Part shown: positions 1-37,893 of the stretch, one piece after another
Position numbering within the stretch: position 1 is the stretch's first letter
Layout of the letters: every line of letters begins with the position of its first letter
Assembly (NCBI GenBank): GCA_030593145.1
Contig: JAUVHU010000006.1
Coordinates: 1,121 to 65,120 of the forward strand
Length of the DNA stretch: 64,000 bases
Direction: 5' to 3'
DNA from: Desulfobacteraceae bacterium
GTDB lineage: Bacteria > Desulfobacterota > Desulfobacteria > Desulfobacterales > ETH-SRB1
The notes under the pieces: model-generated
The model's database searches: none
The model's input: the letters and a program-made list of their open reading frames with translations, nothing else
What the model was told of the DNA's origin: nothing
Translations under genes and position numbers: made by a program

Positions 1-2
1 CT

Positions 3-1031
3 GTCACATCACCGCCCTTGCTTGATAAGTTCAATGCTGAGCTTCCTGTTTACCTTTTGGAGGTAGCCCGGCCTGATAAGGAACGAACTTATCGCCTGGA
101 TGATTTCTACCCTTTGTTCAACGAACAAGGATTGGTTCACATTGATATTGTGGGAAGTGATGGAGAGAACAAACCCGGGCTTACCTACCATGGCTTGCAA
201 AAGGACACCAGGCCCTTTTTCCAAAAGGCACATTTTCACTTTAATGCTCCTGAGTTTGAGGCTTTCGGGCTTACCATACTTGAGGCATATCAAGGCGGGG
301 CCATTCCTGTTGCTCAGGCTACCGGAGGTTTAAGAGAACTGGTAACAAATAAAAAAACGGGCTACCTGTTCAAAGAGAGGACGAATTTCGATGATGTTAA
401 AGAAATGCTGCGTCAAATCGTCCTGGAGTATCTGAAAAACCCCGGAAAATTTGCAGGAATAGCGAGCGAAGGATACAATCAACTGAAGCAAAACTATTCC
501 ATCGAGACCTGCGTTCAATCTTATCGGGAATTATACAAAGTTCTTCAGCGTAAAAACAGACCCGTATGGGACAAAGGATGGTCACCGGAATTTGGAATGT
601 TCTACGATCTTTTCGGGCTTAAGAGACTTTCTCCGGAAATGGCGGTTTCGTTGTCGTCTCAGATGCGAGACCCACAGGAAAGGGCTATGGCTTTTTTGCG
701 TAGCGCTCAGTTATTTCTTCCTGCCTCTCCACAGAAGGCCAGCGAATGTTTGGAACAAATTACAGAAGAGCCGCTTGATATATACGACTTCTACTTTGCA
801 AAATATGAAACAAATTATTTGTTTGGCAACATAAACAGCGCAGAAGCGAATTTATGCCAATGCATGGAAATAGTACCTGAACGCATGGAGCCTTATCTAA
901 CATTTGCTGATCTTCTCCTGCGAAGAAGAGATATTAAAAGGGCACTTGACGTGCTGATTTCGTATCAAAAACAAAATGGCTCCTCACAGGTTGTTGATTC
1001 CTTTATACAAAAAATCAACGCACTAAAATAA
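3..1031 (+). CDS. glycosyltransferase (GT-B fold, GT1/GT4-type C-terminal domain) with helical-repeat tail; 5' end cut by window edge
   Basis: The frame is open from nt 3. EAFGLTILEAYQGGAIPVAQATGGLRELV..GYLF is the donor-binding region typical of GT1/GT4 enzymes. The C-terminal part is TPR-like. Confidence 0.7.
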   Translation, partial: VTSPPLLDKFNAELPVYLLEVARPDKERTYRLDDFYPLFNEQGLVHIDIVGSDGENKPGLTYHGLQKDTRPFFQKAHFHFNAPEFEAFGLTILEAYQGGAIPVAQATGGLRELVTNKKTGYLFKERTNFDDVKEMLRQIVLEYLKNPGKFAGIASEGYNQLKQNYSIETCVQSYRELYKVLQRKNRPVWDKGWSPEFGMFYDLFGLKRLSPEMAVSLSSQMRDPQERAMAFLRSAQLFLPASPQKASECLEQITEEPLDIYDFYFAKYETNYLFGNINSAEANLCQCMEIVPERMEPYLTFADLLLRRRDIKRALDVLISYQKQNGSSQVVDSFIQKINALK

Positions 1032-1055
1032 ATTCGTTTGACATTACCAATTAAA

Positions 1056-2036
1056 ATGAAATTACTTGTCTTTAACTGCCATGAAGCTTGGGTGTATCAG
1101 CTCGGTGCATTGAAATGTGACCTTGATATAATTGTAGGATTAAAGGGCCGTTATACCGATGGATGGGATGAACAGATGCGTCCTCTCCCTTCAAATGCGA
1201 GGACGATCAGTTTGTCAGAGGCATTGGAAGCTCAAATCCCTTATCACTGCATAATATGTCACAACATAACCGATTTGCTTGATGTCAAATCCCTGTCAGG
1301 ACCTCGCATAATTGTCCTTCACTCTACCCTTGATGGTCGATTGCAAGAGGAACGGTCCGATCTACCTCCGGAAAAATTGAAGAGTATGCTTTCACATTAT
1401 CTTAAACTTGTGGGAGGCCATGCTGTAAGCATCTCACCACTCAAAGGGGCTTCGTGGGGCTTATCAGAGGACATAGTCACTGCCGGGGTGGAAACCGATG
1501 ATTATCTACCCTACACAGGGGATGAAGCAAAAGGGCTTCGTATTTGCAATGAGATCTCAAAACGCAAAAAAATCCTTTACTGGGATCTCCATGAAGAAGC
1601 CTTCCATGATCTTCCCATACAGATCGTTGGACATAATCCAGACATGTCAAGAGTTGAACCTGCTCGCAATTGGAATCATCTCAAACAAATGCTGAGTTCT
1701 CATCGCTTCTATATTCACACTGCTGATTCAAGATTTGAAGACGGGTATAATATGGCCACCTTAGAGGCGATGGCCGCCGGTATGCCGATTTTAGGGAATC
1801 GCCATCCGACATCACCGGTAGAGCATGGTATAAGCGGGTTTCTTTCCGATAATCCTGATGAATTACGCTCTTATGCGAATAAGCTCATAGCGGATAGAAA
1901 CTTAGCGGTCAGGATGGGGGAGGCGGCACGTAAGATGGTTGCAGAAAGGTTCTCCCCGGCAAAGTTTAAGGAAGGTTTTACCCGTTCCATTCAAACCGCC
2001 TGCATCAAGCGGAAGGCCAATAGTAACAATTTATGA
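1056..2036 (+). CDS. glycosyltransferase family 1 (GT4-type)
   Basis: The ORF spans 1038-2036, with a likely ATG at 1056 (MKLLVFNCHEAW). EDGYNMATLEAMAAGMPILG..GISGFL is a GT1/GT4 C-domain motif. Confidence 0.7.
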   Translation: MKLLVFNCHEAWVYQLGALKCDLDIIVGLKGRYTDGWDEQMRPLPSNARTISLSEALEAQIPYHCIICHNITDLLDVKSLSGPRIIVLHSTLDGRLQEERSDLPPEKLKSMLSHYLKLVGGHAVSISPLKGASWGLSEDIVTAGVETDDYLPYTGDEAKGLRICNEISKRKKILYWDLHEEAFHDLPIQIVGHNPDMSRVEPARNWNHLKQMLSSHRFYIHTADSRFEDGYNMATLEAMAAGMPILGNRHPTSPVEHGISGFLSDNPDELRSYANKLIADRNLAVRMGEAARKMVAERFSPAKFKEGFTRSIQTACIKRKANSNNL

Positions 2037-4801
2037 GTCTTGATCAAACAACAAACAGCTATTCTTTACTCATCGTTCAGGTTGAACCACCGCAACGGGA
2101 AGATGGAGGTGATTATTATTACCGGACCTTCGCGCCCGGCCTTGCTATGGCACAACAACAAGGCGTCTATGTCATCAATTTGACCAACGTCCACAGTAAA
2201 AAAGAAGAGATTATGAGGCAGGCTGATGTTTTGGTCTTAAAGAACATCTGTGATCCAGACTTCTTTCCCCTCATTAAAGATAGGAAAGAGCAAGGAAAAC
2301 TTACTGTCTATGAATTAGCAGACGATCTTTGCGCTATACCTCCATGGAATCCGGTCCATTTTTTTTACAAGGACCAGGAAAATCTCCTTCTTTTTAAAAG
2401 ATCAGCCAACTATTGCGATGCCATTCAATTTAGTGTGCCTGAACTTCAAAGATTGTACAGTTATTTGAACCCTTGTTCGGCTGTCTTTCCAAACCAAATT
2501 ACGGACATACCTCCTGAGAGAAAATTTGAAAACTCTAAGAAGATTATCATCGGCTGGGGCGGTTCCCACGGACATCTGGAAGATATGGCTGAAGTAGCAG
2601 GAGTTCTCATGGACTGGATCATATCAAAAGATAATGTACACCTTTATCTAATGTGTTCAGATCCAATCTGGACACTCTTTGAACATTTGCCGGCAAAGCG
2701 AAAAAAGCGTTTTAAGCCCGGTTCTTTGGATGATTATTGCTCGTTTCTAAAAAAGATCGACATCGGCCTTGCTCCGCTAAAAGATACTGCATTCAACAGA
2801 TCCAGATCAGACGTAAAGTTTTTGGAATATGCTGTTCACGGAGTTGTGCCGGTTGTGCAGGCATCTGTTCCATATATATTCACCGTCAAGCACGGAGAGA
2901 CAGGCTTTTTGTTTGAAGATGCATCCGGGATGTTAGATGTCCTTGAGATGCTCACAGATGATGGTAATCTTATTTCCAAAGTGGCGCAAAACGCCAGGGA
3001 ATATGTCATAAAGGATCGTCTTCAGCATCGCCACGGAAAAGAAAGAATAGAGTTTTACAGAACAAGACTTGCTGAACTCAATTCAGGACAAAAAGTCAAT
3101 AGTGCCACTCATAAGATATTTGAAGGTTTCTGCAATATTGAGGGGGCCATTCAAAAAGGCCGGCATTTGAGATTAATGCCGACCAAATTTGAAAATTTAT
3201 TGCATGACGGGTTGGTATTTAGCCAGGTGGAAGGCAATGCCTCATCTGCGCAAGCACTTTTTTCAAAGGCCTCTCGATTGGAACCGAACAATTATTTGCC
3301 TTATTTATTTGGGGCTTCTTGTTCCGGTAATCCAGTTGATTCCCTGCGGCAGGCCATTAAAAAAAATCCACATTCTCTAAAATCGTGGATTTTGTTAGGC
3401 GAAGAATATGCGAAGAATGGAGATGTTGTAAGAGCCCTGAAGTGCTTTGAGTATGCTGCCGAAATTTTTCCTGAATATGAAATTCCTTATGTTAGAACTG
3501 CAAGAATCATGAGGGGATTGCAAAGAAAGACAGATTGGATATCTCTTCTTGATAAGGTACAACATTGTCTATCATACTCCGTTCCCCGATCCCGGGAGGA
3601 TAAGGCGATTTGCCCTTTACCTCAGACAAGTTTGAATCGAACAAAGCGTGTTCTACTACTGGCTTCCGAAAATGGAATGATTCATCATGATTGTCTGGAT
3701 GGCTTTAGGGCCTTGGGCTGGGAGACTTCATTCGAACCCTTTGGAACCGGGAAACATAACGAACCGGATGCCTATGAAAAATTGGTCTTTAAGATATACT
3801 CCTATCATCCTCATCTTGTCCTTTCAATCAATCAGGTAGGATGCGACCTGGATGGCTATATTCTCTCTGCCCTTTCAAAGGCAGGAATTCCTGCCGTCAT
3901 CTGGTATGTAGATAACCCCTTTGCTCTTCTATCTAATGATCCTGTCCAAATGGTTCAACATGCTTCCCTTCTGGCATGTTTTGACTCCTCGTATGTGGAG
4001 GAACTTACAAAGCAGACCGGGGTTACGTCCGTTCACTTGCCCCTTGGAACAAATCCAAAGAGGTTTAATTCTCCCGTCTCATGTGCTTTAGAGCCGGAAT
4101 GGAACATTTCTTTTGTCGGAAACCTTGGCCTTGATATGGTATCTCGCCAGCGGGTAGCACTGAACAACGACCATCCTCATCTTGTTAATCTGGTAGATGA
4201 AATTGTAAAGAAAATGACATCCGGTCTATCAAAATCCTCCCGCGATTTGATAGAAACCCATGCGTCATTACTTTCAATTGACTGGCATGCCCTTCCACAG
4301 GGTCTTCAAGAAAGAATTTGCATCGTGGCAGAAACGGATGCATCAGCACAAAGGCGTGTTCAGATTATTTCAACACTGAGCAATCAGGGAATTAAGGTAG
4401 TTGGCCATCCTGAATGGCGCCCCTATTTACAATTGGAGCAACTCATTCCCCCCGTTGATTATTTAAAAGGATTGTGTCCGGTATATCAGAAAAGTCGAAT
4501 CAACCTGAACATTTCAAGATTTCAGTTGCGAACAGGTGTCAACCAACGTGTATTTGATGTTCCGGCAGCAGGTGCTTTTTTGTTAACCGATAGGACACAT
4601 GAACTGGGACAATATTTTCAGATAAATGAAGAGATTGCCGTTTATGAAGATGCCGAGGATATTAAGCTAAAAGTAAAATATTATCTAACCCATGAACAAG
4701 AAAGGCTGGCAATGATTAATAAAGCCCGTAACAGAGTTCTGCATGAACATACATACGCCAATCGAATGAAATCATTAATCAAGATGATAGGATTGAAGTA
4801 A
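2033..4801 (+). CDS. multidomain glycosyltransferase-like protein (N-terminal GT-like region, TPR repeats, C-terminal CgeB/DUF3880-type domain)
   Basis: ATGA start/stop overlap with the upstream gene. TPR-like SWILLGEEYAKNGDVVRALKCFEYAAEIFPEY. The C-terminal RINLNISR..GVNQRVFDVPAAGAFLLTD..VYEDAEDIKLKVKYYL..ARNRVLHEHTYANR resembles CgeB-like GT domains. Confidence 0.6.
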   Translation: MSLDQTTNSYSLLIVQVEPPQREDGGDYYYRTFAPGLAMAQQQGVYVINLTNVHSKKEEIMRQADVLVLKNICDPDFFPLIKDRKEQGKLTVYELADDLCAIPPWNPVHFFYKDQENLLLFKRSANYCDAIQFSVPELQRLYSYLNPCSAVFPNQITDIPPERKFENSKKIIIGWGGSHGHLEDMAEVAGVLMDWIISKDNVHLYLMCSDPIWTLFEHLPAKRKKRFKPGSLDDYCSFLKKIDIGLAPLKDTAFNRSRSDVKFLEYAVHGVVPVVQASVPYIFTVKHGETGFLFEDASGMLDVLEMLTDDGNLISKVAQNAREYVIKDRLQHRHGKERIEFYRTRLAELNSGQKVNSATHKIFEGFCNIEGAIQKGRHLRLMPTKFENLLHDGLVFSQVEGNASSAQALFSKASRLEPNNYLPYLFGASCSGNPVDSLRQAIKKNPHSLKSWILLGEEYAKNGDVVRALKCFEYAAEIFPEYEIPYVRTARIMRGLQRKTDWISLLDKVQHCLSYSVPRSREDKAICPLPQTSLNRTKRVLLLASENGMIHHDCLDGFRALGWETSFEPFGTGKHNEPDAYEKLVFKIYSYHPHLVLSINQVGCDLDGYILSALSKAGIPAVIWYVDNPFALLSNDPVQMVQHASLLACFDSSYVEELTKQTGVTSVHLPLGTNPKRFNSPVSCALEPEWNISFVGNLGLDMVSRQRVALNNDHPHLVNLVDEIVKKMTSGLSKSSRDLIETHASLLSIDWHALPQGLQERICIVAETDASAQRRVQIISTLSNQGIKVVGHPEWRPYLQLEQLIPPVDYLKGLCPVYQKSRINLNISRFQLRTGVNQRVFDVPAAGAFLLTDRTHELGQYFQINEEIAVYEDAEDIKLKVKYYLTHEQERLAMINKARNRVLHEHTYANRMKSLIKMIGLK

Positions 4802-4864
4802 GTAATTAAAAGTAATCTCGAACATGAATCGTTCAAAAATTCACTGAATGAAAGGAAAATATAT

Positions 4865-6646
4865 TTGAAAGCAACCGAACCTCAATATCAGCAGGCGTTG
4901 CCTGAAGAATTTTCCGTCACCACACTTGAAAAAAATTTAGCTGCTTTGGCTACCATCAATGAGAATTTATTTCAGCGTATATGCCTGCCGGTTGATGGTA
5001 CCCATGTCCATTTTCTCAAAAACGGCGAAATTAGCTATCAAATAAACCAAACCCTTTTTCCATTTGTCTTGGACAAAGAAAAGCTGGAAGAGACATTGAA
5101 AGATGTAAATAGTTCGAAAGATATCCTGCTTTTCGGTATTGGACTGGGCGAGCAGCTTAATTATTTGCTCGAACGGTTCACGGAGGTCGGAATCACAGCC
5201 TGGGATCGGGACCCCTGGCTTATTCGCCTGGCGCTGATGCAGAGAGACTACAGTCACCATCTTCGTTCCGGCCGGCTGCAACTGCGTATGGGCGTTGATA
5301 TTTTGGATATCGTTGATATGGCTAAAAACACCCCTGTCGTGATTCATCCCTTGTTACGTTCGTTTTACAAAAATGAGTGGAAATTACTTAAAACCGGCGT
5401 TGGAGAAAAGCGAGCCATTATATGTTCGGGCGGGCTTTTTGTGGACGATGTAAGTAATGCTCTGGAAGGGTTTGGTTATACACTTTACACATTAGACGTA
5501 ACAAGGTTATCTGTTGAAGAAATATCGCTAAATATCAAACGATTCAATCCTCAGGTGGCTTTTGCCGTTAATTATACAAACGGTCTTGCAGAATTGTTCG
5601 AAAGTCACGGCGTAGATCTGATTTGCTGGGAGGTAGATCCTGCCACAGACCACCTTAAGCCGATCAGTACAAGCTCGGATCGTGCCTATGTCTTTACTTA
5701 CCGAGAAGCTAATGTTGAGGAATTTGTCAAGGCCGGGTTTAAGAATGTAGAACATCTTCCCCTTGCTTCTGATACTGAAAAAAGATTGCCGACACAACTT
5801 TCCCAAGAGGAACACGACATCTATGACGCCAAATTGTCTTTTGTTGGTTCGAGCATGACAGAAAATGCGATATCCCTCCGTAAAATCTTTCTTTCACAAT
5901 ACAAGGCTTGTCAGGATGGATCTGCTGATGCGGTGGAAGAGGGAAATCGTCTTTTAGAAGAGATTTTATCCGTGCAGCGGCAAAATTTCTCTGTTTATGT
6001 AATCCCTGATCTTTTAGATAAATATTTTTCCGGCTTCATCAGCTACCTTTTGAAGCTTCCCGGCGCCCATAATCCATTCATCCTGGTTGGTGAAATTGCG
6101 GCAGCGGAAAAGCGGGCTAACTACATTGCAAATCTGGGCAGCCTCGGTGTAAAGGTCTGGGGTGATGATGGGTGGCTGAGTACAGAGCAATTTGGAGTAA
6201 AGTATATGGGGAGCGCCGGACACACATTTGAGATCAACAAGATTTACAGTGCATCCAGCATCAACGTGGATATCAACAGGTTATATCAGATGGATATTAT
6301 ACCGATGCGGATTTTTGATATCATGGCCTGCGGCGGTTTTATTCTGGCCGAATACAGCAAAGAGTTAAGTAACATCTTTGAGATAGGCAAGGAGGTTGAA
6401 ACATACAGCACGTTAGACGAATTGGTCTCAAAAGCGACCTACTATCTTGATCATGAATCCGAAGCATTGGAAATCGCAAAGCGGGGCAGGGGAGCAGTAC
6501 TTAAAAAGCACACGATATCCGGTAGGGTGAAGCATATGCTAAAGGCCTGCGTTAAAGAATGTTCACCGTTTTCCGACGTGCAACCGACAACCGACAACGA
6601 ACAACGGTCAACGGATAACGGCCAACGGCTAACCGATAACGGATAA
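4865..6646 (+). CDS. Maf-N-terminal-like module fused to CgeB/DUF3880-type glycosyltransferase domain
   Basis: The N-terminus parallels the Maf protein at 23761 (LEKNLAAL..INENL vs LEQNLNVL..KDPDL; LLFGIGLGEQLNYLL vs IFMGLGLGYHLDLFF). The C-terminal INVDINR..MRIFDIMACGGFILAEYS..TLDELVSKATYYL is CgeB-like. The last ~20 codons (QPTTDNEQRSTDNGQRLTDNG) are read from a heptamer array. Confidence 0.55.
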   Translation: MKATEPQYQQALPEEFSVTTLEKNLAALATINENLFQRICLPVDGTHVHFLKNGEISYQINQTLFPFVLDKEKLEETLKDVNSSKDILLFGIGLGEQLNYLLERFTEVGITAWDRDPWLIRLALMQRDYSHHLRSGRLQLRMGVDILDIVDMAKNTPVVIHPLLRSFYKNEWKLLKTGVGEKRAIICSGGLFVDDVSNALEGFGYTLYTLDVTRLSVEEISLNIKRFNPQVAFAVNYTNGLAELFESHGVDLICWEVDPATDHLKPISTSSDRAYVFTYREANVEEFVKAGFKNVEHLPLASDTEKRLPTQLSQEEHDIYDAKLSFVGSSMTENAISLRKIFLSQYKACQDGSADAVEEGNRLLEEILSVQRQNFSVYVIPDLLDKYFSGFISYLLKLPGAHNPFILVGEIAAAEKRANYIANLGSLGVKVWGDDGWLSTEQFGVKYMGSAGHTFEINKIYSASSINVDINRLYQMDIIPMRIFDIMACGGFILAEYSKELSNIFEIGKEVETYSTLDELVSKATYYLDHESEALEIAKRGRGAVLKKHTISGRVKHMLKACVKECSPFSDVQPTTDNEQRSTDNGQRLTDNG

Positions 6647-6686
6647 CGGATAACGGACAACAATGATTAACGGACAACAGATAACA
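6580..6686. repeat. 7-nt-period degenerate array, unit CGGAYAA
   Basis: ccgacaa ccgacaa cgaacaa cggtcaa cggataa cggccaa cggctaa ccgataa cggataa cggataa cggacaa. It spans the stop codon at 6644-6646. Confidence 0.85.
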
Positions 6687-7760
6687 ATGCCCAATGACCC
6701 AAAAGTAAGCGTTATTGTTCCAACATATAATAGGGCAGATATGATAGGATTCTGTATTGAGGCAGTCCTGTCTCAAACTATGCAGGATTTTGAACTCATC
6801 ATTGTTAGCGATGGCTCTACTGATGAAACGGAAATAGTAGTCAAAAATTATCATGATCCCCGAATATTATTTTTTGAAAAAGAAAATGGAGGACAGGCTT
6901 CAGCGCGTAATTTGGGCATAATCAAATCAATAGGAGAATATATATCCCTGTGTGACGATGATGATATATTTTATCCGGATCACCTAAAAACATTATGCGA
7001 TTTATTGGATACTCATAGAGATGTAGGATTGGGATATTCAGACGCAATATGGATATACAAGGATGCTTCAATAAAGCCTGAGGTAAGATTTTCGGAAGAT
7101 TTTGACAAAAAAAATCTGGAGAACTTCAACTATATCACAACGCAAACCGTCCTGTTCAGGAGATCATGTCTGAAAAATACCGAGCTATTTAATGAAGACC
7201 CATGTCTTAGGAATGGCTTGGAAGATTGGGAATTCTTTTTACGGTTTTCCGACAATTATGCTTTTTCTCATATAAAGAAGGTTTCATCTGAATACAATAT
7301 ACATGAAGGGAACTCATTTCACTCCGATTCAGGTTATGATTACAACAAAGCCTTCTTTCATGTTAGGACACAGAGATTTCAATATCTCACGGCAAAATTT
7401 GGCCATTTTATTTTTGATCATGTTGATCACATGTATCCATATCATTTGGTTCAATGTTATCTGAATAATGGAAAAATCAATGAGGGCCTTGAAATAGCTC
7501 AAAAACTTCAGCAGATTTATATGACATATAGCAAGAATAACAACAAAGCGCCATTTGCGGAGTTAGTGATCCTTTTTTCTCTCGGTATAAGCAATTTTGC
7601 CGCAGGTTATGAAACAAAAGCCAATAACTTCTTCAGAATTATCATTGACCACCCCTCCTACACATTAATTAAAGACCAATTTGACGAGTTTGCCAACCAG
7701 TATGTAAACAGAATACCTAATGCGGGACTTAAAGCCCTATTGAGGAAATATTTCCTGTGA
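6687..7760 (+). CDS. glycosyltransferase family 2
   Basis: The longest ORF starts at 6663 inside a repeat array. ATG 6687 gives MPNDPKVSVIVPTYNRADMI..LIIVSDGSTDET, a canonical GT-A/GT2 N-terminus, followed by an acidic CDDDD motif. Confidence 0.75.
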   Translation: MPNDPKVSVIVPTYNRADMIGFCIEAVLSQTMQDFELIIVSDGSTDETEIVVKNYHDPRILFFEKENGGQASARNLGIIKSIGEYISLCDDDDIFYPDHLKTLCDLLDTHRDVGLGYSDAIWIYKDASIKPEVRFSEDFDKKNLENFNYITTQTVLFRRSCLKNTELFNEDPCLRNGLEDWEFFLRFSDNYAFSHIKKVSSEYNIHEGNSFHSDSGYDYNKAFFHVRTQRFQYLTAKFGHFIFDHVDHMYPYHLVQCYLNNGKINEGLEIAQKLQQIYMTYSKNNNKAPFAELVILFSLGISNFAAGYETKANNFFRIIIDHPSYTLIKDQFDEFANQYVNRIPNAGLKALLRKYFL

Positions 7761-7848
7761 ACCAGGCAAGATTTACCTATCATTTTTTATGGCACATATT
7801 GATTGCCATAACTTATTGATTTTAAAGCAAACCTCATATCAATAATCA

Positions 7849-7864
7849 TGGCACATCCTTTGCA
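7849..7864 (+). promoter_or_regulatory. sigma54 (RpoN) -24/-12 promoter candidate for the pse operon
   Basis: TGGCAC-atcct-TTGCA is an exact match to the TGGCAC-N5-TTGCA consensus. It lies ~165 nt upstream of ATG 8028. Confidence 0.6.
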
Positions 7865-7941
7865 TTCTTTTAAGTTCATCTGAAAGTTAAATTAAAGTTT
7901 CAGCTTTTTCAAACCGAAGACAGTAATACCAACTAAAGAAC

Positions 7942-8020
7942 GTTATCTGTTGACAGTTGACAGTTTTCCGTTCACCGACGGACCACGGAATACGGACAAC
8001 GGAGAACAATAAATAACGGA
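7942..8020. repeat. 7-nt-period array, two polarities in phase
   Basis: gttatct gttgaca gttgaca gttttcc gttcacc gacggac cacggaa tacggac aacggag. Confidence 0.75.
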
Positions 8021-8027
8021 GTATGGC

Positions 8028-9344
8028 ATGAAATACCGAATTCAAAAAGTAAGCGAAAAAATAGAAGTCCCCAGATCGACGATTCGGTTTTGGGAGACGG
8101 AGTTTCCTGAATTAGTCAAGCCCGAAAGAACCAATGGCGGGCAAAGAAGATATTCCGAACAGGATATCAGCAATTTGCAGAAAATCAAAAACCTGCTTCA
8201 TCGTAAAAACAGAACCATTGATCAAGCCAGGATTATTCTTAAACAGGGAAATGCTGACGCAGGCAAGATTGACTGGCAAAATCAATCGATTCTTTTGACC
8301 GGTGGAACAGGTTCTTTTGGAAAGCACTTCTGCAAGGTCATGCTCGAAAAATATCACCCTAAGGTTATAAGAATATACAGCCGCGATGAATTAAAGCAGC
8401 ATGAGATGCGTCAAACATTTGGCGAGGATGTTATAAGATACTTTATCGGGGATGTGAGAGATGGTGACCGTCTGAAGAGAGCTATGGAAGGAATAGATAT
8501 TGTCATTCATGCAGCGGCTCTCAAGCAGGTTCCTTCCTGCGAATATAATCCTTTTGAGGCTGTTAAGACCAATATTTACGGCGCACAAAACGTTATTGAT
8601 GCTGCCATTGATGTAGGTGTCAAAAAAGTAGTTGCTTTAAGCACCGACAAGGCTGTAAATCCGGTCAATCTCTATGGGGCAACTAAGCTCTGCTCGGATA
8701 AGATCTTTATCCAGGGGAATTCCTACTCCGGCTCACGAGGCACACATTTTAGTTGTGTTCGGTACGGAAATGTTATTGGAAGTCGTGGCAGTGTTATCCC
8801 CCTTTTCAGGGAACAGAAAAAAACCGGCAAGATAACCATAACCGATGAACGAATGACAAGGTTCTGGCTTACCCTTGATCAGGCGGTTGAGCTCGTGGTC
8901 AATGCACTTTGTTACATGCAGGGCGGAGAAATCTTCGTGCCCAAGATTCCGAGCATGAAGATAATGGATCTGGCTAAGGCAATAGCCCCGCAATGTGATA
9001 TAGAAGTTATCGGCATAAGGCCGGGAGAAAAGATACACGAGGCTTTAATAACGGAAGAAGATGGGAGAAACACGGTGGCGTATAATGGCATGTATGTCAT
9101 TATGCCCAACAGTTCATGGTGGGAAAGGCAAAATTATAAAACCGGCAAAAAGCTACCCGATGATTTCATCTATGCCAGCGATACCAATGATGAGTGGCTG
9201 AGTGTAGAGGATTTAAAGAAAATCATCTATGAATCTTCCTCGGTTGAAGAAGATCCAGCCTCCAGATTGCTATCGACCATTCATCAGTTAAATGAAAAAG
9301 TTATTTTGAACATGCTAAATTCTGAGGAACGGACAACGAGGTAA
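8028..9344 (+). CDS. pseB: UDP-N-acetylglucosamine 4,6-dehydratase (inverting), PseB/FlaA1/CapD-type, with N-terminal MerR-type HTH extension
   Basis: ILLTGGTGSFGKHF Rossmann motif and ..IYSRDELKQHEM..DVRD..HAAALKQVP..YGATKLCSDK (SDR YxxxK). Residues 1-75 (VPRSTIRFWETEFPELVKPERTNGGQRRYSEQDISNLQKIKNLL) look like a MerR-family HTH. Confidence 0.8.
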   Translation: MKYRIQKVSEKIEVPRSTIRFWETEFPELVKPERTNGGQRRYSEQDISNLQKIKNLLHRKNRTIDQARIILKQGNADAGKIDWQNQSILLTGGTGSFGKHFCKVMLEKYHPKVIRIYSRDELKQHEMRQTFGEDVIRYFIGDVRDGDRLKRAMEGIDIVIHAAALKQVPSCEYNPFEAVKTNIYGAQNVIDAAIDVGVKKVVALSTDKAVNPVNLYGATKLCSDKIFIQGNSYSGSRGTHFSCVRYGNVIGSRGSVIPLFREQKKTGKITITDERMTRFWLTLDQAVELVVNALCYMQGGEIFVPKIPSMKIMDLAKAIAPQCDIEVIGIRPGEKIHEALITEEDGRNTVAYNGMYVIMPNSSWWERQNYKTGKKLPDDFIYASDTNDEWLSVEDLKKIIYESSSVEEDPASRLLSTIHQLNEKVILNMLNSEERTTR

Positions 9345-9411
9345 AGTATGAACAACGGACAACGGTGAACAATGCATAACGGACAACAGACAACAGACAA
9401 CGGACAACGAC
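9326..9411. repeat. 7-nt-period array (ACGGACA family) covering the pseB stop and pseC start
   Basis: gaacgga caacgag .. aacaacggacaacggtgaacaatgcataacggacaacagacaacagacaacggacaacga. Confidence 0.8.
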
Positions 9412-10691
9412 CCTTTATTCCTTATGGTCGTCAACAGATCGACGAAGACGACATACAGGCTGTTGTAGATGTACTTCGCTCCGACTGGCTGACCACAGGC
9501 CCAAAAGTGGGCGAGTTCGAGCAGGCGGTTGCTGATTTTGTGGGAGCCAAAGAAGCCGTAGCAGTTAGTAGCGGAACGGCAGCACTGCATGCAGCCATGT
9601 ACGCCATTGGCATCGAGCCGGGTGACGAAGTGATTGTCCCTCCAACGACTTTTACTGCAACGGCCAATTGTGTTGTCTTCCAAGGGGGAACGCCTGTCTT
9701 TGCAGATGTTGATCCGTGTACATTGCTGATTGATCCTAACGAAGTGGAGGCAAAGATTACTCCGAAGACAAAGGCAATCATAGCAGTGGACTATGCAGGG
9801 CAACCTTGCGATTACGATGCCCTTCGAAGAATCGCCGAACGCCATGACCTGATTCTTGTTGCTGATGCCTGTCATTCCCTTGGTGCGGAATACAAAGGCC
9901 GCAAGGTTGGTTCTCTCGCCGACATGACCGTTTTCAGCTTTCATCCTGTTAAGCACATTACAACCGGCGAAGGAGGAATGATAACAACTGACAATTCGGA
10001 ATTTGCCGAACATATGAGAATGTTTAGAAGTCACGGCATCACTCGCGATCCGAAGCAATTCGCTCCTTCAGAGGAAGTCTCCGCACCCTCTGCCCCAAGC
10101 CCAATACTCCAAGCTCCATGCGCTCTGCCCTTTTACTACGAGATGCAAGATCTTGGTTACAACTACCGTATCACGGACATCCAGTGCGCACTTGGTCTTT
10201 CCCAATTAAAAAAGCTGCCGAAGTTTCTGGAGCGAAGGTGTGAGATAGCTGCTTTATATGACAAAGCCTTAGCGGACATCTCCGGTATAGAACCTCTCGG
10301 GCTTCGCGCCGACGTCTTACCGGCCACGCAAAGCGCTTTGCGCCCTGCGCCTTGCGCCCTGCGCCCTGCTCCAAGCTCCATGCTCTCTGCTCTCTGCTCT
10401 CTGCGTTCAAGTCACAGTTATCACCTCTATGTCGTCAAAGTGGATTGTAAAGCCTCTGGAACCAATCGAAACACCCTATTTCAGTCTTTGCGTGAGAAAG
10501 GTATCGGCGTAAATGTTCATTATATCCCAGTTCATCTTCACCCATATTATCAGAAGCGATTTGGTTATGAAAATGGCCTCTGTACTGTAGCAGAAGAAGC
10601 TTACGAACAGATGCTATCACTCCCCATGTTTCCAGGAATGAGTGATGAAGACATCAAAAATGTTGTTACTGCAGTGAGGGAGACAATATAA
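9372..10691 (+). CDS. pseC: DegT/DnrJ/EryC1-family aminotransferase, PseC-type (UDP-4-amino-4,6-dideoxy-N-acetyl-beta-L-altrosamine transaminase)
   Basis: IPYGRQQIDEDDIQAVVDVLRSDWLTTGPKV, SFHPVKHITTGEGG (PLP lysine) and GYNYRITDIQCALGLSQLKKL. The gene lies directly after pseB. It carries two repeat-derived in-frame insertions. Confidence 0.8.
   Translation: MHNGQQTTDNGQRPFIPYGRQQIDEDDIQAVVDVLRSDWLTTGPKVGEFEQAVADFVGAKEAVAVSSGTAALHAAMYAIGIEPGDEVIVPPTTFTATANCVVFQGGTPVFADVDPCTLLIDPNEVEAKITPKTKAIIAVDYAGQPCDYDALRRIAERHDLILVADACHSLGAEYKGRKVGSLADMTVFSFHPVKHITTGEGGMITTDNSEFAEHMRMFRSHGITRDPKQFAPSEEVSAPSAPSPILQAPCALPFYYEMQDLGYNYRITDIQCALGLSQLKKLPKFLERRCEIAALYDKALADISGIEPLGLRADVLPATQSALRPAPCALRPAPSSMLSALCSLRSSHSYHLYVVKVDCKASGTNRNTLFQSLREKGIGVNVHYIPVHLHPYYQKRFGYENGLCTVAEEAYEQMLSLPMFPGMSDEDIKNVVTAVRETI
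10056..10130. repeat. repeat-derived in-frame insertion 1 inside pseC
   Basis: ..ctccgcaccctctgccccaagcccaatactccaagctccatgcgctctgccc. It encodes FAPSEEVSAPSAPSPILQAPCALP. Confidence 0.6.
10305..10409. repeat. 7-nt-period array inside pseC (in-frame insertion 2)
   Basis: ctttgcg ccctgcg ccttgcg ccctgcg ccctgct ccaagct ccatgct ctctgct ctctgct ctctgcg. This is the reverse-complement flavour of the AGCATAG/AGCTTGG arrays. Confidence 0.8.
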
Positions 10692-23670: not shown

Positions 23671-23745
23671 ACGACAATGCAATAAGCAGTGAACAGACAA
23701 CATACAGCGGAAAACGGACAGCAGTGAACGGTGAACGATTCGCCA
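23671..23745. repeat. 7-nt-period array between the TPR-GT2 gene and maf
   Basis: cagtgaa cagacaa catacag cggaaaa cggacag cagtgaa cggtgaa. Confidence 0.75.
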
Positions 23746-23760: not shown

Positions 23761-25719
23761 ATGAAGAAAAATGCTATTCTTGAACAAAATTTAAATGTAT
23801 TGTCCCAGAAAGATCCTGATCTCGCGCGAAGGGTTAGAGAAAGCACAGGAAATGGTAATTATAAAATAATTCGATCAAAAACAGGCTATCCAAACGTGAT
23901 AATTGAGAAAGGATTTGATGCAGAGGCGCTTTATGACAATAGTGACCCCATAGGATATTGTCGTCAATATCTGGAATCACTCAACATTAAATACGCCCCT
24001 ATTGTGATCTTTATGGGTCTGGGGCTTGGGTATCATCTCGATCTATTTTTCAAAGAGTACAGCAAACGGCTCAAAACAGAAGAGATCGTTATCTTCGAAG
24101 AGAATATTGGCCTATTTCGGCTGGCGCTGGAGTTGGGTGATTTCCGTAAAATTATCTCCCATCCCAATATTCACTTTTTTATTGGTGAAGACCCTGAAGC
24201 TGCTTTCCCAAAATTGAGGACTAAAATTCTTATAACTGGAAAAAATTGGATTGTTCTAAGATCTGTTAAAATCATTCCTATTCCTGGGAGTGTTTTTCAG
24301 GCTAATGAATACTACCTAAGAGCACTCAAAACGGCTAAGGATGCCGCTAGGCAAGTAATGATCACGGCTGGGAATGATCCTTTTGATTGCCTGGTTGGCC
24401 TCGAGCACATTTTTGAAAACCTGAGGGATATATTTTCCAACCCAGGTATAAACCTTCTTTCTGGAAGGTTTAAGGGACGGCCAGGAATCTTGGTAGCATC
24501 AGGACCGTCATTGAATAAGAATATGCATCTTCTCGGAGACCTTAGGGCTCGTGCCCTCATTATAAGTTGTGACGCAAGCCTTACTCCTCTCATTAAAAAT
24601 AGAATCCGCCCACATTTGGTAACCTCCCAAGAAAGAACTCCTGGGGTTGAACTCCATTATTCCTGCCTTAATGATTTTGATGGTATCTGTTTTGTTGGAT
24701 GCCCTATCCTAATGCCTGAGGTTTTTGCTGCATTCAAAGGGAAGAAGATCATTGTTTACAGGGCATATTCCCAGTTTGACTGGCTAGAGTGTGAAAAGGG
24801 TTCCCTGATTACAGGTATATCTGTGGCCAATATGGCATTTAAGATTCTTGAGTCATTAGGATGCGACCCTATCATCCTTGTTGGCCAGGACCTTGCCTTT
24901 TCCGAGAATGGGGATACCCACGTTGAGGGCAATGTATATGGAGAGATAAGCAAGGAAGCATTATTGAAAAATCCCACTATTATGCTCGAAGGTAATGACG
25001 GAAGGCACGTTAGGTCTGAGAGGTCGTGGGAGATTATGAAAAATACATACGAGGAGGACGTTGAGGCTTATCAGGGTAAATGTATCAACGCAACAGAGGG
25101 AGGGGTCAGGATTCGAGGTACCGAGGTAATGTCTTTTAATGAGGCAATACAAAAGTATTGCACAGAAGAGTTTTGGCCGGAGTTAATAATAAACGAAATC
25201 TTTTCTGATTTTGAGAAAAAAAATATTGATGTTGAAGCGGAGCTGAAAAGGATCCACACAAAGGCTATAGAAACCCGGAGAACAGTACAGAATACAATCG
25301 ACCAGTTCCTGGAGGCCCTTGAGGAGGCCCGCCTTGCGGAAAAGGAGATTATCCAACCCTTCATTGACAACGGTTCGGCTGTTGAGACTGAAAGACTTGT
25401 GAATATCGAAAAGAAATTCCTTGATCTGAGTAGAACGCTTAACGACCCAGGAGACAGAAAATTGTATGATATTACCGCCCATACCTTACAGCCCTATGAT
25501 ATATGGTTTACCCATGAGCTGAGCTTCCTTAAAGACATTTACACGGATAAGGAGTGCTTGTCAGCGGCAACGGTGCTCAAGATGAAAGAATGGTTCGCTG
25601 TAGTAGGACATCTTCTTGTCTGTACGAGGGATGTTCTGGAGAAGACTGAAAAAAGGCTGGATGAGGAGGTTGGGGGGGTTAGAGGGTTAGAAGGGGAAAG
25701 CATAGAGCATAGAGCTTAG
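23761..25719 (+). CDS. maf: motility accessory factor (Maf; DUF115/MptE-like flagellin nonulosonic-acid transferase)
   Basis: GRPGILVASGPSLNKNM..ALIISCDASLTPLIKNRIRPHLVTSQER is the DUF115 core. It lies next to flagellin and pse genes. The longest ORF starts at 23731 in a repeat array, and the C-terminal GGVRGLEGESIEHRA is read from an array. Confidence 0.75.
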   Translation: MKKNAILEQNLNVLSQKDPDLARRVRESTGNGNYKIIRSKTGYPNVIIEKGFDAEALYDNSDPIGYCRQYLESLNIKYAPIVIFMGLGLGYHLDLFFKEYSKRLKTEEIVIFEENIGLFRLALELGDFRKIISHPNIHFFIGEDPEAAFPKLRTKILITGKNWIVLRSVKIIPIPGSVFQANEYYLRALKTAKDAARQVMITAGNDPFDCLVGLEHIFENLRDIFSNPGINLLSGRFKGRPGILVASGPSLNKNMHLLGDLRARALIISCDASLTPLIKNRIRPHLVTSQERTPGVELHYSCLNDFDGICFVGCPILMPEVFAAFKGKKIIVYRAYSQFDWLECEKGSLITGISVANMAFKILESLGCDPIILVGQDLAFSENGDTHVEGNVYGEISKEALLKNPTIMLEGNDGRHVRSERSWEIMKNTYEEDVEAYQGKCINATEGGVRIRGTEVMSFNEAIQKYCTEEFWPELIINEIFSDFEKKNIDVEAELKRIHTKAIETRRTVQNTIDQFLEALEEARLAEKEIIQPFIDNGSAVETERLVNIEKKFLDLSRTLNDPGDRKLYDITAHTLQPYDIWFTHELSFLKDIYTDKECLSAATVLKMKEWFAVVGHLLVCTRDVLEKTEKRLDEEVGGVRGLEGESIEHRA

Positions 25720-25760
25720 AGGAGCTTAAAACTGAAAGCTCAAAGCAGGTAATAAACCCC
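25668..25760. repeat. 7-nt-period array over the maf stop codon
   Basis: ggttaga gggttag aagggga aagcata gagcata gagctta gaggagc ttaaaac tgaaagc tcaaagc. Confidence 0.75.
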
Positions 25761-27119: not shown

Positions 27120-28514
27120 ATGGCATTAAGAATTGTAAATAACCTTGCGGCGTTGAACACCCAGCGTTGGTTGGGTATCGCAGATACCGGGATGAAACAA
27201 TCTCTTGAAAGATTATCATCCGGTTATCGGATCAATAAGGCAGCGGATGATGCTGCTGGTCTGGCTATTTCTCAAGCTTTTAGGGCGAATATAGCCAGCT
27301 TTAAAGTGGCTTCGAGAAATACCTCAGAGGCCGCAGCGCTCTTGCAGGTGGCTGAAGGTGGTATGGACCAGATCGGAAACATGCTTACCCGACTGAAAGA
27401 GCTGGCCACCCAATCTGCTTCGGCAAACGTTGGTTCTTCTGAGCGTGCAAAGATCGACTCCGAAGGTACCGCGTTGCTGAATGAAATTGACCGAATCGCC
27501 AACTCCTCAAAATACGGGAGTACGGCTTTGCTGGACGGAACATTCGGGGCAACCAAAAGCGGTGTATTTGCAGCAGGTGCTAAAGGTGACGGCGTCGTTA
27601 ATACAAACATTGTATACAACTTTACGGCAGCTACAACAATGACCGGCACACTTTCTGATGCTGTTGATGGGACATGGGCATTCAGTTCAGGAGGGGCAAC
27701 GACTAGCCTGACAATTGTGAATAGTTCAGGAACGTTGAAGGAAACGGTTTCTGTAGCTGCTGGTACCATAGTGAGTGGCACCGCTACATTTGAAAACCTG
27801 GGAATGACAATAGCATTCACTGCAGCGATTACTGCTGCTGCTGCTCTAGGTGACGACACACTCAATGTCTACCGTACAGGACTCACCAACATTACGGCAG
27901 AGGGTGCAACTACCGGAACATACACCATAACCGATGCCAATGGTACCGATATTACGTTGGCAAATTCTGCCGGAACTTGGAGCCAGACAGTGTCTCTTTC
28001 ACCAGGTGCTGGTACGGCAAGTTTTAGTGAATTAAGTATCGCATTTGATGTGACTTCAGCTTACGCGGATGAGGAGTTAAGCGGTACAACGATAACAATC
28101 TCATCCACTGGAAGCGCTGGCAATACCTTCCAGATCGGCGCGGAAAATAACACTGACAACCAGATTTCTATTACAGTATCAGGTACAAGAGGTTCCGATC
28201 TTGGCATAAGCAGTCTTTCACTTGACACCGCAGCCAATGCCCAGGCAGCTCTTGATCTGGTCGATACTGCCATCGGTAGTCTTGCAGGGTCAAGAGGTGA
28301 AATCGGCGCTTCCATGAACAGGTTGAGTTATGCTTCTGCGAATCTGGCAACGACCATTGAGAACCAGCAGGCGGCGGAATCTGTTATTCGCGATGTGGAT
28401 ATGGCGGCTGAGATGACGGACTTTACCAAGAACCAGATCCTGCTCCAGGCTGGTACTGCCATGCTTGCACAAGCAAATATGGCGCCGCAGCAGGTGCTGG
28501 CTCTCTTTGGGTAA
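27120..28514 (+). CDS. fliC: flagellin
   Basis: N-terminal MALRIVNNLAALNTQR..LERLSSGYRINKAADDAAGLAISQ and C-terminal ..MTDFTKNQILLQAGTAMLAQANMAPQQVLALFG. The central domain is T/S/G-rich. The RBS is aaggagg. Confidence 0.9.
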   Translation: MALRIVNNLAALNTQRWLGIADTGMKQSLERLSSGYRINKAADDAAGLAISQAFRANIASFKVASRNTSEAAALLQVAEGGMDQIGNMLTRLKELATQSASANVGSSERAKIDSEGTALLNEIDRIANSSKYGSTALLDGTFGATKSGVFAAGAKGDGVVNTNIVYNFTAATTMTGTLSDAVDGTWAFSSGGATTSLTIVNSSGTLKETVSVAAGTIVSGTATFENLGMTIAFTAAITAAAALGDDTLNVYRTGLTNITAEGATTGTYTITDANGTDITLANSAGTWSQTVSLSPGAGTASFSELSIAFDVTSAYADEELSGTTITISSTGSAGNTFQIGAENNTDNQISITVSGTRGSDLGISSLSLDTAANAQAALDLVDTAIGSLAGSRGEIGASMNRLSYASANLATTIENQQAAESVIRDVDMAAEMTDFTKNQILLQAGTAMLAQANMAPQQVLALFG

Positions 28515-28575
28515 GAGCATAGAGCTTAGAGCATAGAGCTTGGGGCTTAGAGAGTAAGGCTCAAAGCTGAAAATA
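28512..28575. repeat. 7-nt-period array starting on the flagellin stop codon
   Basis: taAGAGCATAG AGCTTAG AGCATAG AGCTTGG GGCTTAG AGAGTAA GGCTCAA AGCTGAA. Confidence 0.8.
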
Positions 28576-33895: not shown

Positions 33896-33995
33896 GTAGA
33901 GCATAGAGCAGAAGGGCAGAAGATTAGAGGGTCAGAAGGTGAGAAGGTGAGAAGGTGAGAGGGTGAGAGAGGTTAGAAGGTGAGAGAAGGAGAAT
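33893..33995. repeat. 7-nt-period array starting on the fliD stop codon (left arm of the four-helix-bundle cassette)
   Basis: taagtagagcatagagcagaagggcagaagattagagg gtcagaa ggtgaga aggtgag aaggtga gagggtg agagagg ttagaag gtgagag. Confidence 0.8.
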
Positions 33996-33997
33996 GT

Positions 33998-34381
33998 TTG
34001 GAGAGAAAAAAGAGCATACGTCATTTTCGGGATCTTGAAGTTTACAGGCGGGCTTTTGATGCGGCAATGCAGATATTTGAAGTTACGAAAAAGTTTCCTC
34101 CGGAAGAAAGGTTCTCCATGGTAGATCAAATTCGAAGGTCGTCGCGTTCTGTATGTGCCAACTTGTCGGAAGGATGGCGGAAAAGGCGTTATTTGGCTGT
34201 CTTCAAAAATAAAATTACAGATTCAATGCAGGAAGCGTCCGAGACACAGTGCTGGTTGGAATTCTGTCTTGCCTGTCGCTACATCAAGCAAGATGTTTTC
34301 GATAAACTTGATAATGAATATGAGCAATTGATTGCAATGTTAAATTCCATGGAAATGAACGCTGCAAAATTCTGTTACTAA
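33998..34381 (+). CDS. four-helix-bundle protein (23S rRNA intervening-sequence protein family)
   Basis: IRHFRDLEVYRRAFDAAMQIFEVTKKFPPEERFSMVDQIRRSSRSVCANLSEGW is the family signature. The likely start is TTG 33998 after the gaaggag RBS. The longest ORF starts at 33980. Confidence 0.8.
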   Translation: MERKKSIRHFRDLEVYRRAFDAAMQIFEVTKKFPPEERFSMVDQIRRSSRSVCANLSEGWRKRRYLAVFKNKITDSMQEASETQCWLEFCLACRYIKQDVFDKLDNEYEQLIAMLNSMEMNAAKFCY

Positions 34382-34473
34382 CCTTCTAACCTTCTGATTT
34401 TCTAACTTTCTGCTTTTGAGCCATGCTTAATTCCATGAAGGTCGGAGGATTAGAAGATTAGAGGATTAAAGGA
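34379..34473. repeat. 7-nt-period arrays after the four-helix-bundle gene (right arm, inverted, plus a GGATTAG array)
   Basis: taaccttctaaccttctgattttctaactttctgcttttgagc is the reverse complement of the GGTTAGAAGG flavour. It is followed by ggtcgga ggattag aagatta gaggatt aaaggaa. Confidence 0.8.
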
Positions 34474-37784: not shown

Positions 37785-37880
37785 AAAAGACAGATATCAG
37801 AGGTCAGAAGTTGTAGGTCAGAAGCCGGAAATCGGAGAACCAACAACCGTGAACCGTTGAACCGTGAACCGTTGAACCTA
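37785..37880. repeat. 7-nt-period arrays between tolA and tolB
   Basis: cagatat cagaggt cagaagt tgtaggt cagaagc cggaaat cggagaa ccaacaa ccgtgaa ccgttga accgtga accgttg aacc. Confidence 0.8.
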
Positions 37881-37893
37881 ATAACTATTATTT

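Follow-up and report, generated by a model that had tools for sequence, protein, structure and literature searches.

Tandem word-repeat arrays at operon junctions touch stop codons and vary with protein termini in an uncultured Desulfobacterales lineage

Why do short tandem repeats begin on the stop codon of one gene and run towards the start of the next? The question is raised by a 64,000-nt stretch of DNA, the window, from a Desulfobacteraceae bacterium. The window corresponds to positions 1121-65120 of contig C64 in a metagenome-assembled genome (MAG; G000) of 2.48 Mb, 111 contigs and 41% G+C, and its RuvB is 75-85% identical to RuvBs of uncultured Desulfobacterales MAGs. It carries a flagellin-glycosylation island (glycosyltransferases, pseB, pseC and maf) together with genes for flagellin, a 1167-aa FliD, FliS, tolA/tolB-like proteins, RuvCAB and an oligopeptide-type ABC transporter. 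The original prediction was that arrays of heptamers start on stop codons and donate start codons and C-terminal tails to open reading frames (ORFs). The positions that it named are all correct: TAA at 28512, 33893, 41471 and 23668, TAG at 37782, 56557 and 58719, and ATG at 9372. Arrays do lie at the seven stops, but those at fliD and ruvC are made of octamers and the one at a yejE-like permease is mixed.

We identified tandem repeats using Tandem Repeats Finder (TRF) and measured periodicity as sequence identity at lags of 7 and 8 nt, expressed as z against shuffles. Eleven junction regions were each periodic at one of these lags (z 2.8-10.1). Lag-7 identity across the junction regions was 0.50-0.72, and the fliD and ruvC arrays had a period of 8 with an identity of 0.60-0.64. 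Across the genome, rows of period 7 (496) and period 8 (263) were far above those of neighbouring periods, such as 6 (54) and 10 (163). The array bases were 67.5% intergenic, as compared to 13% of the genome, and 22-27% of co-oriented spacers held an array. Arrays scoring at least 40 comprised 54 distinct heptamer and 31 distinct octamer units, and no single motif dominated the genome.

Genome-wide, arrays were coupled to stop codons. The gene set of G000 was a crude one of greedy longest ORFs (2253 genes, 87% coding). The test set individual arrays scoring at least 50 (n = 96), all from co-oriented spacers offering 40 nt or more of free room, against uniform placement. Eleven arrays started 0-3 nt past a stop versus 3.2 ± 1.7 expected (P < 0.0005, ∼3.4-fold), and 19 started within 0-10 nt versus 8.8 ± 2.8 expected (P = 0.002). 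Twelve further strong arrays overlapped a gene end. On the start side, the same test yielded counts of 2 (0-3 nt) and 8 (0-10 nt), equal to the null; distances to the start codon piled up at 11-25 nt, the room needed for a Shine-Dalgarno (SD) sequence. A first null, in which the arrays of one spacer were lumped as a single span, had given no enrichment (38 vs 43) because arrays as long as their spacer are forced to distance 0, and was replaced by the per-array tests. Repeating the test on 535 kb of a congener (G001, contig C29) yielded 3 arrays versus 1.2 expected, a comparison that is underpowered and not significant. The coupling of arrays to stops is real and about 3-fold; as originally proposed, it exceeds what random low-complexity DNA predicts.

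The arrays themselves were not enriched in stop codons. In arrays starting 0-10 nt past a stop, stop density was 0.075 in sense and 0.071 in antisense, compared with 0.070 for shuffled sequences. The possibility that arrays evolved to close three frames was ruled out by this chance-level density and by the proportion of arrays in which all frames were closed, which was 34% in sense versus 41% in antisense.

We then compared G000 with the congener, which belongs to the same genus (RuvB 95% identical at the protein level, genes ∼90% identical at the nucleotide level), using 107 orthologous co-oriented junctions on C29, each anchored in both flanking genes. Junction length differed by at least 20 nt in 73 of the 107 and was equal in only 22. 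G001 was the longer at 44 junctions and G000 at 29, G001 holding more element insertions. The upstream stop had moved in 30 of 105 junctions. An array lay at the stop in 15 of these 30 versus 16 of the 75 junctions with a conserved stop (odds ratio 3.7, P 0.008). There were 16 arrays at stops in G000 and 22 in G001, only 7 of which were shared.

Twenty-three of the junctions differed by a clean single gap. The spacer of the empty allele had a median length of 10 nt and was no longer than 28 nt in 18 of the 23 cases. The breakpoint did not lie beyond the end of the stop in 12 of the 23 (0.52) versus 0.69 expected if placement were uniform over the last seven codons and the spacer. With empty spacers of only ∼10 nt, an insertion has to land on the stop codon or within the final codons. 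At C63:54426, the G001 protein ends LLKGA at a TGAATG junction; in G000, it ends LLKPEMSD, followed by a hairpin of GATTAGC words, 13 nt before the old stop. The old tail is left as spacer and TTAAA is duplicated at the flanks. At C44:4666, the genes overlap by ATGA in one genome; in the other, the upstream protein ends GKGAV, followed by a hairpin and a new ...GAGGAATA-ATG, the hairpin bringing both the stop and a GAGGA SD. A model in which the probability of insertion is proportional to spacer length was unsupported, with medians of 10 nt for empty alleles and 13 nt for stable junctions (P 0.38), a comparison biased by the clean-case filter. A single target sequence, either TTAAA or a stop triplet, was likewise unsupported by the inconsistent duplications: TTAAA was exactly duplicated once and GGGATT once, the rest being 0-3 nt or mismatched.

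Many of the near-stop arrays are the 5′ arms of multi-copy hairpin elements with tandem-word arms and conserved loops. According to seed patterns, famA (GGATTGNT words ... GATTGAAAAGA ... CAATCC) has 21-22 copies, famB (GGGATTNA words ... AAAATC) has 8 and famC (GAACATC words ... CATCGAATTTTGA) has 29. In most of the copies listed, complementary word arms flank the shared loop, and the listed famA and famB copies typically begin at the stop or within the final codons (aaGGATTGAtgattg) and reach the next SD. The elements are strongly oriented, the ratio of sense to antisense copies being 15:2 for famA, 8:1 for famB, 16:5 for famC and 15:0 for single-armed GGTCAGA arrays. In near-stop arrays, G makes up 31% and C 11% of the sense strand; 73% of these arrays are purine-rich versus 11% pyrimidine-rich. 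The arrays in the window are mostly single-armed; among the listed junctions, an inverted pair occurs only at fliD. In folding calculations on ten window junctions, seven had z of −0.4 to +1.1, two were marginal (−1.5 and −2.0) and only ruvC/ruvA was significant (−3.2), which, with the single inverted pair, rules out for the window that all stop-flush arrays are RTS/REP-like hairpins. The hairpin families elsewhere in the genome are structured as judged by inspection of their sequences.

The arrays are probably arms, or leftover single arms, of diverse, fast-turnover non-coding word-repeat elements that sit in tight junctions, their coupling to stops being passive. Such elements would be tandem 7-8-nt words, single or as inverted pairs forming hairpins, some of them in gene cassettes of the 23S-rRNA-IVP type. 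They would insert into operon junctions and expand or contract there. As unoccupied junctions are ∼0-25 nt and often overlap (ATGA, TAAATG), a tolerated insertion would land near the stop or in the last codons. The cut ORF would then read into the element as far as the first in-frame stop, which chance supplies at ∼7% of triplets, giving tails of 1-27 residues. The downstream gene would retain its own SD and ATG or, if these were displaced, use an SD or ATG at the 3′ edge of the element, as pseC does. Later unit indels would rewrite the termini. The multi-copy families, with conserved cores and running flush from stop to SD at many junctions, favour this account. The direction of change would be insertion rather than deletion, with selection merely filtering the outcomes. 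Given the strong sense orientation, some selection at the RNA level exists; we infer that it reflects avoidance of harmful RNA, such as C-rich Rho-loading sites, rather than a positive function.

Several points weigh against this explanation. Filled and empty alleles were compared between two genomes only, so some of the apparent insertions could be precise deletions, and the 23 clean cases are biased to short, simple junctions. Against the uniform null, stops keep a ∼3-fold excess of arrays even where the spacer has room to spare, with the caveat that part of this room is the rest of the same element. The strong sense orientation shows that something acts on the transcript or on transcription, and a purely neutral account is insufficient. 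The geometric argument explains neither the orientation bias nor the word length of 7-8 nt. Finally, the gene calls are a crude longest-ORF set, and the genome is a MAG in which array lengths rest on the assembly.

In the window, the fate of individual termini can be followed by reference to orthologues. A relative, G006, has a contig (C172) that is syntenic with window positions 1-10554 at 80-94% identity. The focal array, at 6566-6690 (+ strand), consists of a C-rich arm (TTCACCG TTTTCCG) followed by ∼15 ACGG-type heptamers. Its lag-7 identity is 0.72 (z 10.1), TRF reports positions 6581-6661 with a period of 7, and the RNA fold is weak (z −1.5). The array holds the TAA stop (6644-6646) of a glycosyltransferase-like ORF at 4865-6646 (+ strand; Glyco_trans_1_2, DUF3880), as well as two candidate starts, ATG 6663 and ATG 6687, of a GT2 glycosyltransferase (6663-7760, + strand). 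The Pfam domain of the first protein ends at residue 559 of 593 and the protein itself ends ...QPTTDNEQRSTDNGQRLTDNG. Its tail is array-encoded, as had been claimed, but comprises ∼27 residues after ...KEC, not 21. In this frame, the array reads as three 7-aa repeats, QPTTDNE QRSTDNG QRLTDNG, followed by TAA. The tail is ...KECSPFSDVQPTTDNEQRSTDNGQRLTDNG in the window versus LPFTVHRFPTATGQRTTVNG (...KECLPFTVHRFPTATGQRTTVNG) in the G006 orthologue, and length and frame both differ; the two arrays therefore differ by unit indels and are read in another frame.

The Pfam GT2 domain begins at residue 16 of the long form of the downstream protein. Translation of this gene would start either at ATG 6663 (motif AACAATGATTAACGG) or at ATG 6687 (MPNDPKVSVIVPTYN), and both ATGs are kept in G006. 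Only the GT2 start and pseC have the motif AACAATGNNTAAC plus a following GG within array sequence; the one other match in the genome lies outside arrays. Within the genome, the ACGG family is restricted to the glycosylation island. A second copy of this element lies upstream of pseB at 7949-8020 (+ strand; lag-7 z 7.0, fold z −1.96), and its last unit, TAACGGAG, is the likely SD for ATG 8028.

The junction between pseB and pseC is filled by an array at 9327-9410 (+ strand; lag-7 z 6.7) that is unstructured (fold z +1.0) and holds both the pseB stop (9342-9344) and the pseC ATG (9372). Orthologous junctions are present in G006 and in two further loci, L132 and L133. The gene pseB (8028-9344, + strand; Polysacc_synt_2 according to Pfam) ends ...SEERTTR, and this tail and the TAA stop are coded by the array or cassette. 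The PseB tail is ...EERTTR in the window versus ...EEHIPETLAVDRSPTDNGIRTTMNNE in G006, where it is 20 aa longer and the stop overlaps the pseC ATG. The gene pseC (9372-10691, + strand) encodes a DegT/DnrJ/EryC1 aminotransferase with the N-terminus MHNGQQTTDNGQR, of which residues 1-13 are array-coded; alignment of the protein with solved aminotransferase structures does not begin before residue 14 (PFIPYGRQ). Upstream of the conserved PFIPYGRQ, there is no second canonical start in frame, in agreement with the original prediction that ATG 9372, within the array, is the sole available start.

The PseC leader is 13 aa in the window versus 29 aa in G006 (MNNEQRTTDNDERTNNGQRITKNNGERS-). Among the 120 closest PseC homologues, 33 lack a leader (start MIPYGRQ) and 26 have heptad-type leaders (NGQRTTD). 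In 16 of these 26, the leader is 6-7, 13-14 or 28 aa, corresponding to steps of three heptamers. A further 37 of the 120 are predicted fusions of 540-620 aa with an upstream toxin-like domain, PIN (PF01850) or PemK (PF02452), joined by low-complexity, array-like linkers such as SAMPSAPCASR and TNQTNTTN. Array-armed cassettes with various small genes would therefore appear to have a hotspot at the pseB/pseC junction. In L132, the pseC ATG is directly followed by a perfect (ACAACGG)x4 run, and L133 has a 23S_rRNA_IVP gene cassette directly upstream of pseC. The SD-ATG string of that cassette, AACGAGGTAAAATATGAA, recurs in the window as ACGAGGTAAAGTATGAA (a 17-nt match) exactly where pseB stops, and the window junction consequently looks like a gene-less relic of an IVP cassette of the L133 type.

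Other features were observed in these genes. In the pseB product, a MerR-type helix-turn-helix domain (HTH; residues 3-73) is joined to the N-terminal side of the Polysacc_synt_2 dehydratase. This fused arrangement is also found in G006 and in L132, where pseB runs off the start of the locus and the Pfam matches are those of the gene table. C-rich heptamer arrays (GCGCCCT, then GCTCTCT) occur in frame within pseC at 10333-10404 and are insertions relative to ArnB in the PDB alignment. In L133, a homologue of the AAA_14/DUF4143 type lies beside the IVP cassette (1-865).

Similar arrays occupy the remaining junctions, all on the + strand. A degenerate heptamer array at 23671-23745 directly follows the stop of a TPR-GT2 gene (TAA 23668-23670); its lag-7 identity is 0.57 (z 5.6), and it is too degenerate to be reported by TRF. 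The end of maf is coded by an array at 25676-25745 (GGGTTAGA, then AGCATAG words; TRF rows; lag-7 z 4.8), which supplies the last ∼14 residues (...GVRGLEGESIEHRA) and the TAG stop (25717-25719). The start of maf is likely at ATG 23761, outside arrays. A search for maf orthologues with which to compare the tail gave a single distant match (34% identity, ending at residue 514). At 28512-28560, the first unit of an NTAGAGC heptamer array is the TAA stop of the flagellin gene (TRF 28514-28552; lag-7 z 5.8).

A cassette follows fliD at 33896-34417 and comprises a AGAAGGTG octamer arm (33910-33993), a gene at 33980-34381 and a CTAACCTT arm (34378-34417). The arms at 33916-33951 and 34378-34413 form an inverted repeat, I3, that is 81% complementary (lag-8 z 6.1). 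The gene bracketed by these complementary word arms is a 23S_rRNA_IVP gene (PF05635, 2e-31). FliD (30392-33895) is unusually long at 1167 aa, with FliD_N at residues 13-114 and the best stretch of FliD_C, which matches in two, at 603-773. A gene for an AAA_14/DUF4143 ATPase (28687-29868, − strand) interrupts the flagellar cluster.

The arrays at the end of the tolA/TonB-like gene (37776-37890; GATTAGA, NNTCAGA and AACCGTG words; lag-7 z 7.3) replace its last codons and supply its TAG stop (37782-37784). In G001, the gene ends ...PKGAKLE-TAA with a 13-nt spacer; in the window, it ends PKGLD-TAG, followed by 109 nt of arrays. The N-terminus of the adjacent TolB starts on ACAACGG-like words, reading MSIHNRQHN in the window (37894-37925) and MLSYNGQRN (TACAACGGACAACGGAAT) in G001 (C29, ∼60750-60800). 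This could be a further leader derived from an array, in this case beyond the glycosylation island. A near-palindrome of 159 nt (39853-40011; 77-nt arms 70% complementary, 5-nt spacer), flanked by TCGAGTAGTC and CTCGACTACTCGACT, sits between an ORF at 39311-39817 and the gene at 40081.

The array at ruvC is a famB word-armed hairpin at 41453-41546 (GGGATTNA octamers, the loop AAAATCAATATAATACC and a complementary arm; fold z −3.2). Its left arm spans the last six codons of ruvC and the TAA stop, and the hairpin reaches the ATG of ruvA, whose start is likely at ∼41547, outside the array. The stop had been placed inside the array for the ORF at 4865, pseB and maf; all three are so placed, but the list was incomplete, ruvC being a further case. 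RuvC ends YRYEGIELRN in the window versus YRYKGI in G001, both within the same hairpin arm, and the number of words differs in G001. Other Desulfobacterales MAGs, such as L007, L040, L010, L012 and L029, have independent arrays that adjoin the stop of ruvC or overlap it. Downstream, three copies of an 18-19-nt sequence, ACGTTTTGCAAAGGTCTC (49583-49601, 50176-50194 and 50506-50523), are placed around the small ORFs 49642-50085 and 50129-50482; their orientation alternates, and two of them are perfect complements.

Mixed 7/8-mer arrays at 56557-56625 (TRF rows) begin with the TAG stop of the yejE-like permease, and fragments of other elements continue up to 56770. G001 has the same TAG with a flush array of different unit content. 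A GGTCAGA-type heptamer array at 58719-58820 (TRF 58749-58817; lag-7 z 8.5) begins inside the TAG stop of the second ABC ATPase and is unstructured (fold z +1.0). The TAG and the flush array are again found in both genomes, with an array length of ∼100 nt in the window versus ∼35 nt in G001. The 311-nt spacer that precedes the gene at 62026 is filled by nested inverted repeats (61759-61990), with arms of 55 nt that are 73% complementary and inner arms of 21 nt that are 90% complementary. Orthologous arrays, compared between relatives, differ in length and sequence in G001 or G006 at the yejE, ABC ATPase, ruvC, ORF 4865 and pseB/pseC junctions. The ends of PseC, PseB, the ORF 4865 product, RuvC and the tolA-like protein also differ, as would follow from the original prediction that array indels change protein termini. 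Array-coded termini that vary between relatives are thus real.

In principle, the position of the arrays could itself be selected, the arrays being functional post-stop RNA modules that act in insulation or re-initiation, in protection from 3′ exonucleases as REP hairpins, or as the site of an RNA-binding protein. We consider this rather unlikely. The strong sense orientation is as this explanation predicts, as is an excess at stops over uniform placement with none at starts. Moreover, the hairpin families occupy exactly the interval between the stop and the following SD, and the flush position at the yejE and ABC ATPase junctions was kept between the congeners despite the change in content. 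There are also precedents: structure directly after stops can control re-initiation (PMC7518266), and TAACTGA repeats have been proposed as regulator-binding sites (PMC4679880). However, most window arrays lack post-stop structure of the former kind: the majority of those flush with a stop are single-armed, with fold z of −0.4 to +1.1, and only ruvC reaches significance. At least 54 heptamer and 31 octamer units argue against one sequence-specific binder. Only 7 of the 16 (G000) or 22 (G001) stop-flush arrays are shared, so most are dispensable, and Rfam yielded no family match anywhere within the window. The chance-level stop content, breakpoints that reach the stop no more often than uniform insertion predicts, the inconsistent target duplications, the ∼10-nt empty spacers and the mostly unfolded window arrays also speak against the original suggestion that the coupling reflects something aimed at translation stops.

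The association with glycosylation genes raises a different possibility. Simple repeats in the glycosylation genes of Campylobacter and Neisseria switch or vary these enzymes, and the arrays at the flagellar glycosylation genes could be contingency loci in which heptamer slippage switches or varies pseC, or the tails of pseB, maf and the ORF at 4865. Heptamers do not divide into whole codons, so the gain or loss of a single unit alters the frame. The pseC ATG is followed by ∼5 units, the repeat after the ATG is perfect in L132, PseC leaders of the common lengths (16 of 26) differ by multiples of three units, and the ACGG family is confined to the glycosylation island. Nevertheless, the units in the window are degenerate (72-82% matches), with at most two identical neighbours, and would slip poorly; the same kinds of array occur at housekeeping junctions genome-wide (ruvC, tolA, ABC transporters); and no out-of-frame alleles were seen among the compared genomes. 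Slippage of this kind is very unlikely to account for the arrays. A bolder version, which we hold to be quite improbable as well, makes the ATG-bearing ACAACGG array a heritable switch of pseC, with phase-variable glycosylation of flagellin, and junction arrays in general a lineage-wide device for varying and fusing termini. If so, a change of one or two units would put PseC out of frame, a change of three would only give a longer, harmless (TTDNGQR)n leader, and the PIN/PemK-PseC fusion ORFs (37 of 120 homologues) would be one example of fusion of termini by arrays. An artefact, arising from low-complexity DNA near stops, from the definition of an ORF by its first stop or from misassembly of repeats in the MAG, is hardly credible. 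In arrays overlapping gene ends, the stop is the first in-frame one by definition and sense stop density is inflated (0.094 vs 0.051), and the G001 replicate was not significant. Arrays that start after the stop are free of this ascertainment, yet their enrichment at 0-3 nt remains 3.4-fold; the significance of the periodicity is high; and the same junction architecture occurs in the independently assembled G001, G006, L132, L133, L007 and L040. The cross-genome comparisons largely refute the artefact.

Mobile word-repeat elements with a passive coupling to stops, the explanation that we prefer, have parallels in several known systems. The G-rich heptamers of Xanthomonas (GGGAATC) and Nostoc (GGGGAYT) lie on the sense strand within 50 bp of stops or overlapping the end of an ORF, form inverted pairs, are transcribed and differ in length from one relative to another (Rehm et al. 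2015, PMC4692102). The present arrays resemble them as over-represented tandem 7-nt units that lie mostly between co-oriented ORFs, often as convergent inverted pairs (PMC4692102), with a G-rich sense strand near or overlapping the upstream stop and orthologous arrays that vary between relatives. Unlike those systems, in which one motif dominates, dozens of unrelated 7- and 8-nt words occur here, many of them unable to form G-quadruplexes, and several word families have conserved loop cores and behave as multi-copy elements. That study holds no analysis of the donation of protein termini (PMC4692102). The TAACTGA arrays of marine Beggiatoaceae, cyanobacteria and Bacteroidetes also lie at gene boundaries, 13 sets overlapping the upstream stop (MacGregor 2015, PMC4679880). 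They share with the present arrays their intergenic, orientation-specific placement at gene boundaries and strain indels in 7-nt steps (PMC4679880). However, they are anchored at the start, the largest class ending 1 nt upstream of it, and have stops in three frames (PMC4679880); for the arrays described here, the anchor is the upstream stop, a gap the size of an SD separates them from the start codon, and their stop content is not raised.

Donation of termini has been described for the Coxiella MITEs (miniature transposable elements with inverted repeats) QMITE1 and QMITE2, which overlap gene 3′ ends by 1-50 bp and confer stops and C-terminal residues (Wachter et al., PMC5896051). Examples are ruvB and a strain-specific 33-aa extension of EnhC (PMC5896051). 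Like these MITEs, the present elements are small, non-coding, palindromic, multi-copy and intergenic, with presence or absence polymorphic between relatives (PMC5896051). Unlike MITEs, their arms are tandem 7-8-nt words and not unique terminal inverted repeats, many copies are single-armed, and the junctions show only inconsistent signs of target-site duplication. The MITE-like features found here are dispersed copies with a shared core and inverted arms, and the 23 filled/empty junctions, at which either allele may be the older. We know of no transposase for word-repeat elements, no search for one having been made here, and PF05635 is not, to our knowledge, a transposase family. REP/BIME, Correia and RPE sequences are further comparable bacterial elements. 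In Geobacter metallireducens, paired tandem octa- and heptanucleotide sites were described as 'global regulator binding sites' of classes 1-3 (Aklujkar et al., PMC2700814). As in the present genome, four or five tandem 7-8-nt units are paired on opposite strands between operon genes, for example at proBA, and several families occur per genome; both organisms are related anaerobic former delta-proteobacteria (PMC2700814). The Geobacter sites were described only as putative IHF/HU sites, their position relative to stops, turnover and effect on termini being unanalysed in that work (PMC2700814). Finally, the IVP cassettes (PF05635) are represented by the word-array-flanked gene after fliD, the IVP gene upstream of pseC in L133 and the putative relic string at pseB/pseC. 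These cassettes lie outside rRNA genes, and most window arrays have neither a gene nor a second arm.

Stop-proximal heptamer repeats that overlap ORFs and the donation of C-termini by MITEs are already published, and the pattern is not new (PMC4692102, PMC4679880, PMC5896051). What the present analysis adds is a measure of the scale on which junction repeats remodel protein termini in one uncultured Desulfobacterales lineage: in about two-thirds of the operon junctions common to the congeners, the lengths are at least 20 nt apart, roughly three in ten of the upstream proteins terminate at another residue, and the moved termini are concentrated where arrays touch the stop. In the annotation of MAGs, little reliance can be placed on start codons, stop codons and C-terminal tails that are called within an array; they differ from genome to genome and sometimes fuse neighbouring ORFs. 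The filled and empty junctions provide a clean set for studying the movement of heptamer-word elements, and the sense-strand orientation is the most promising handle on any function that these elements may have.

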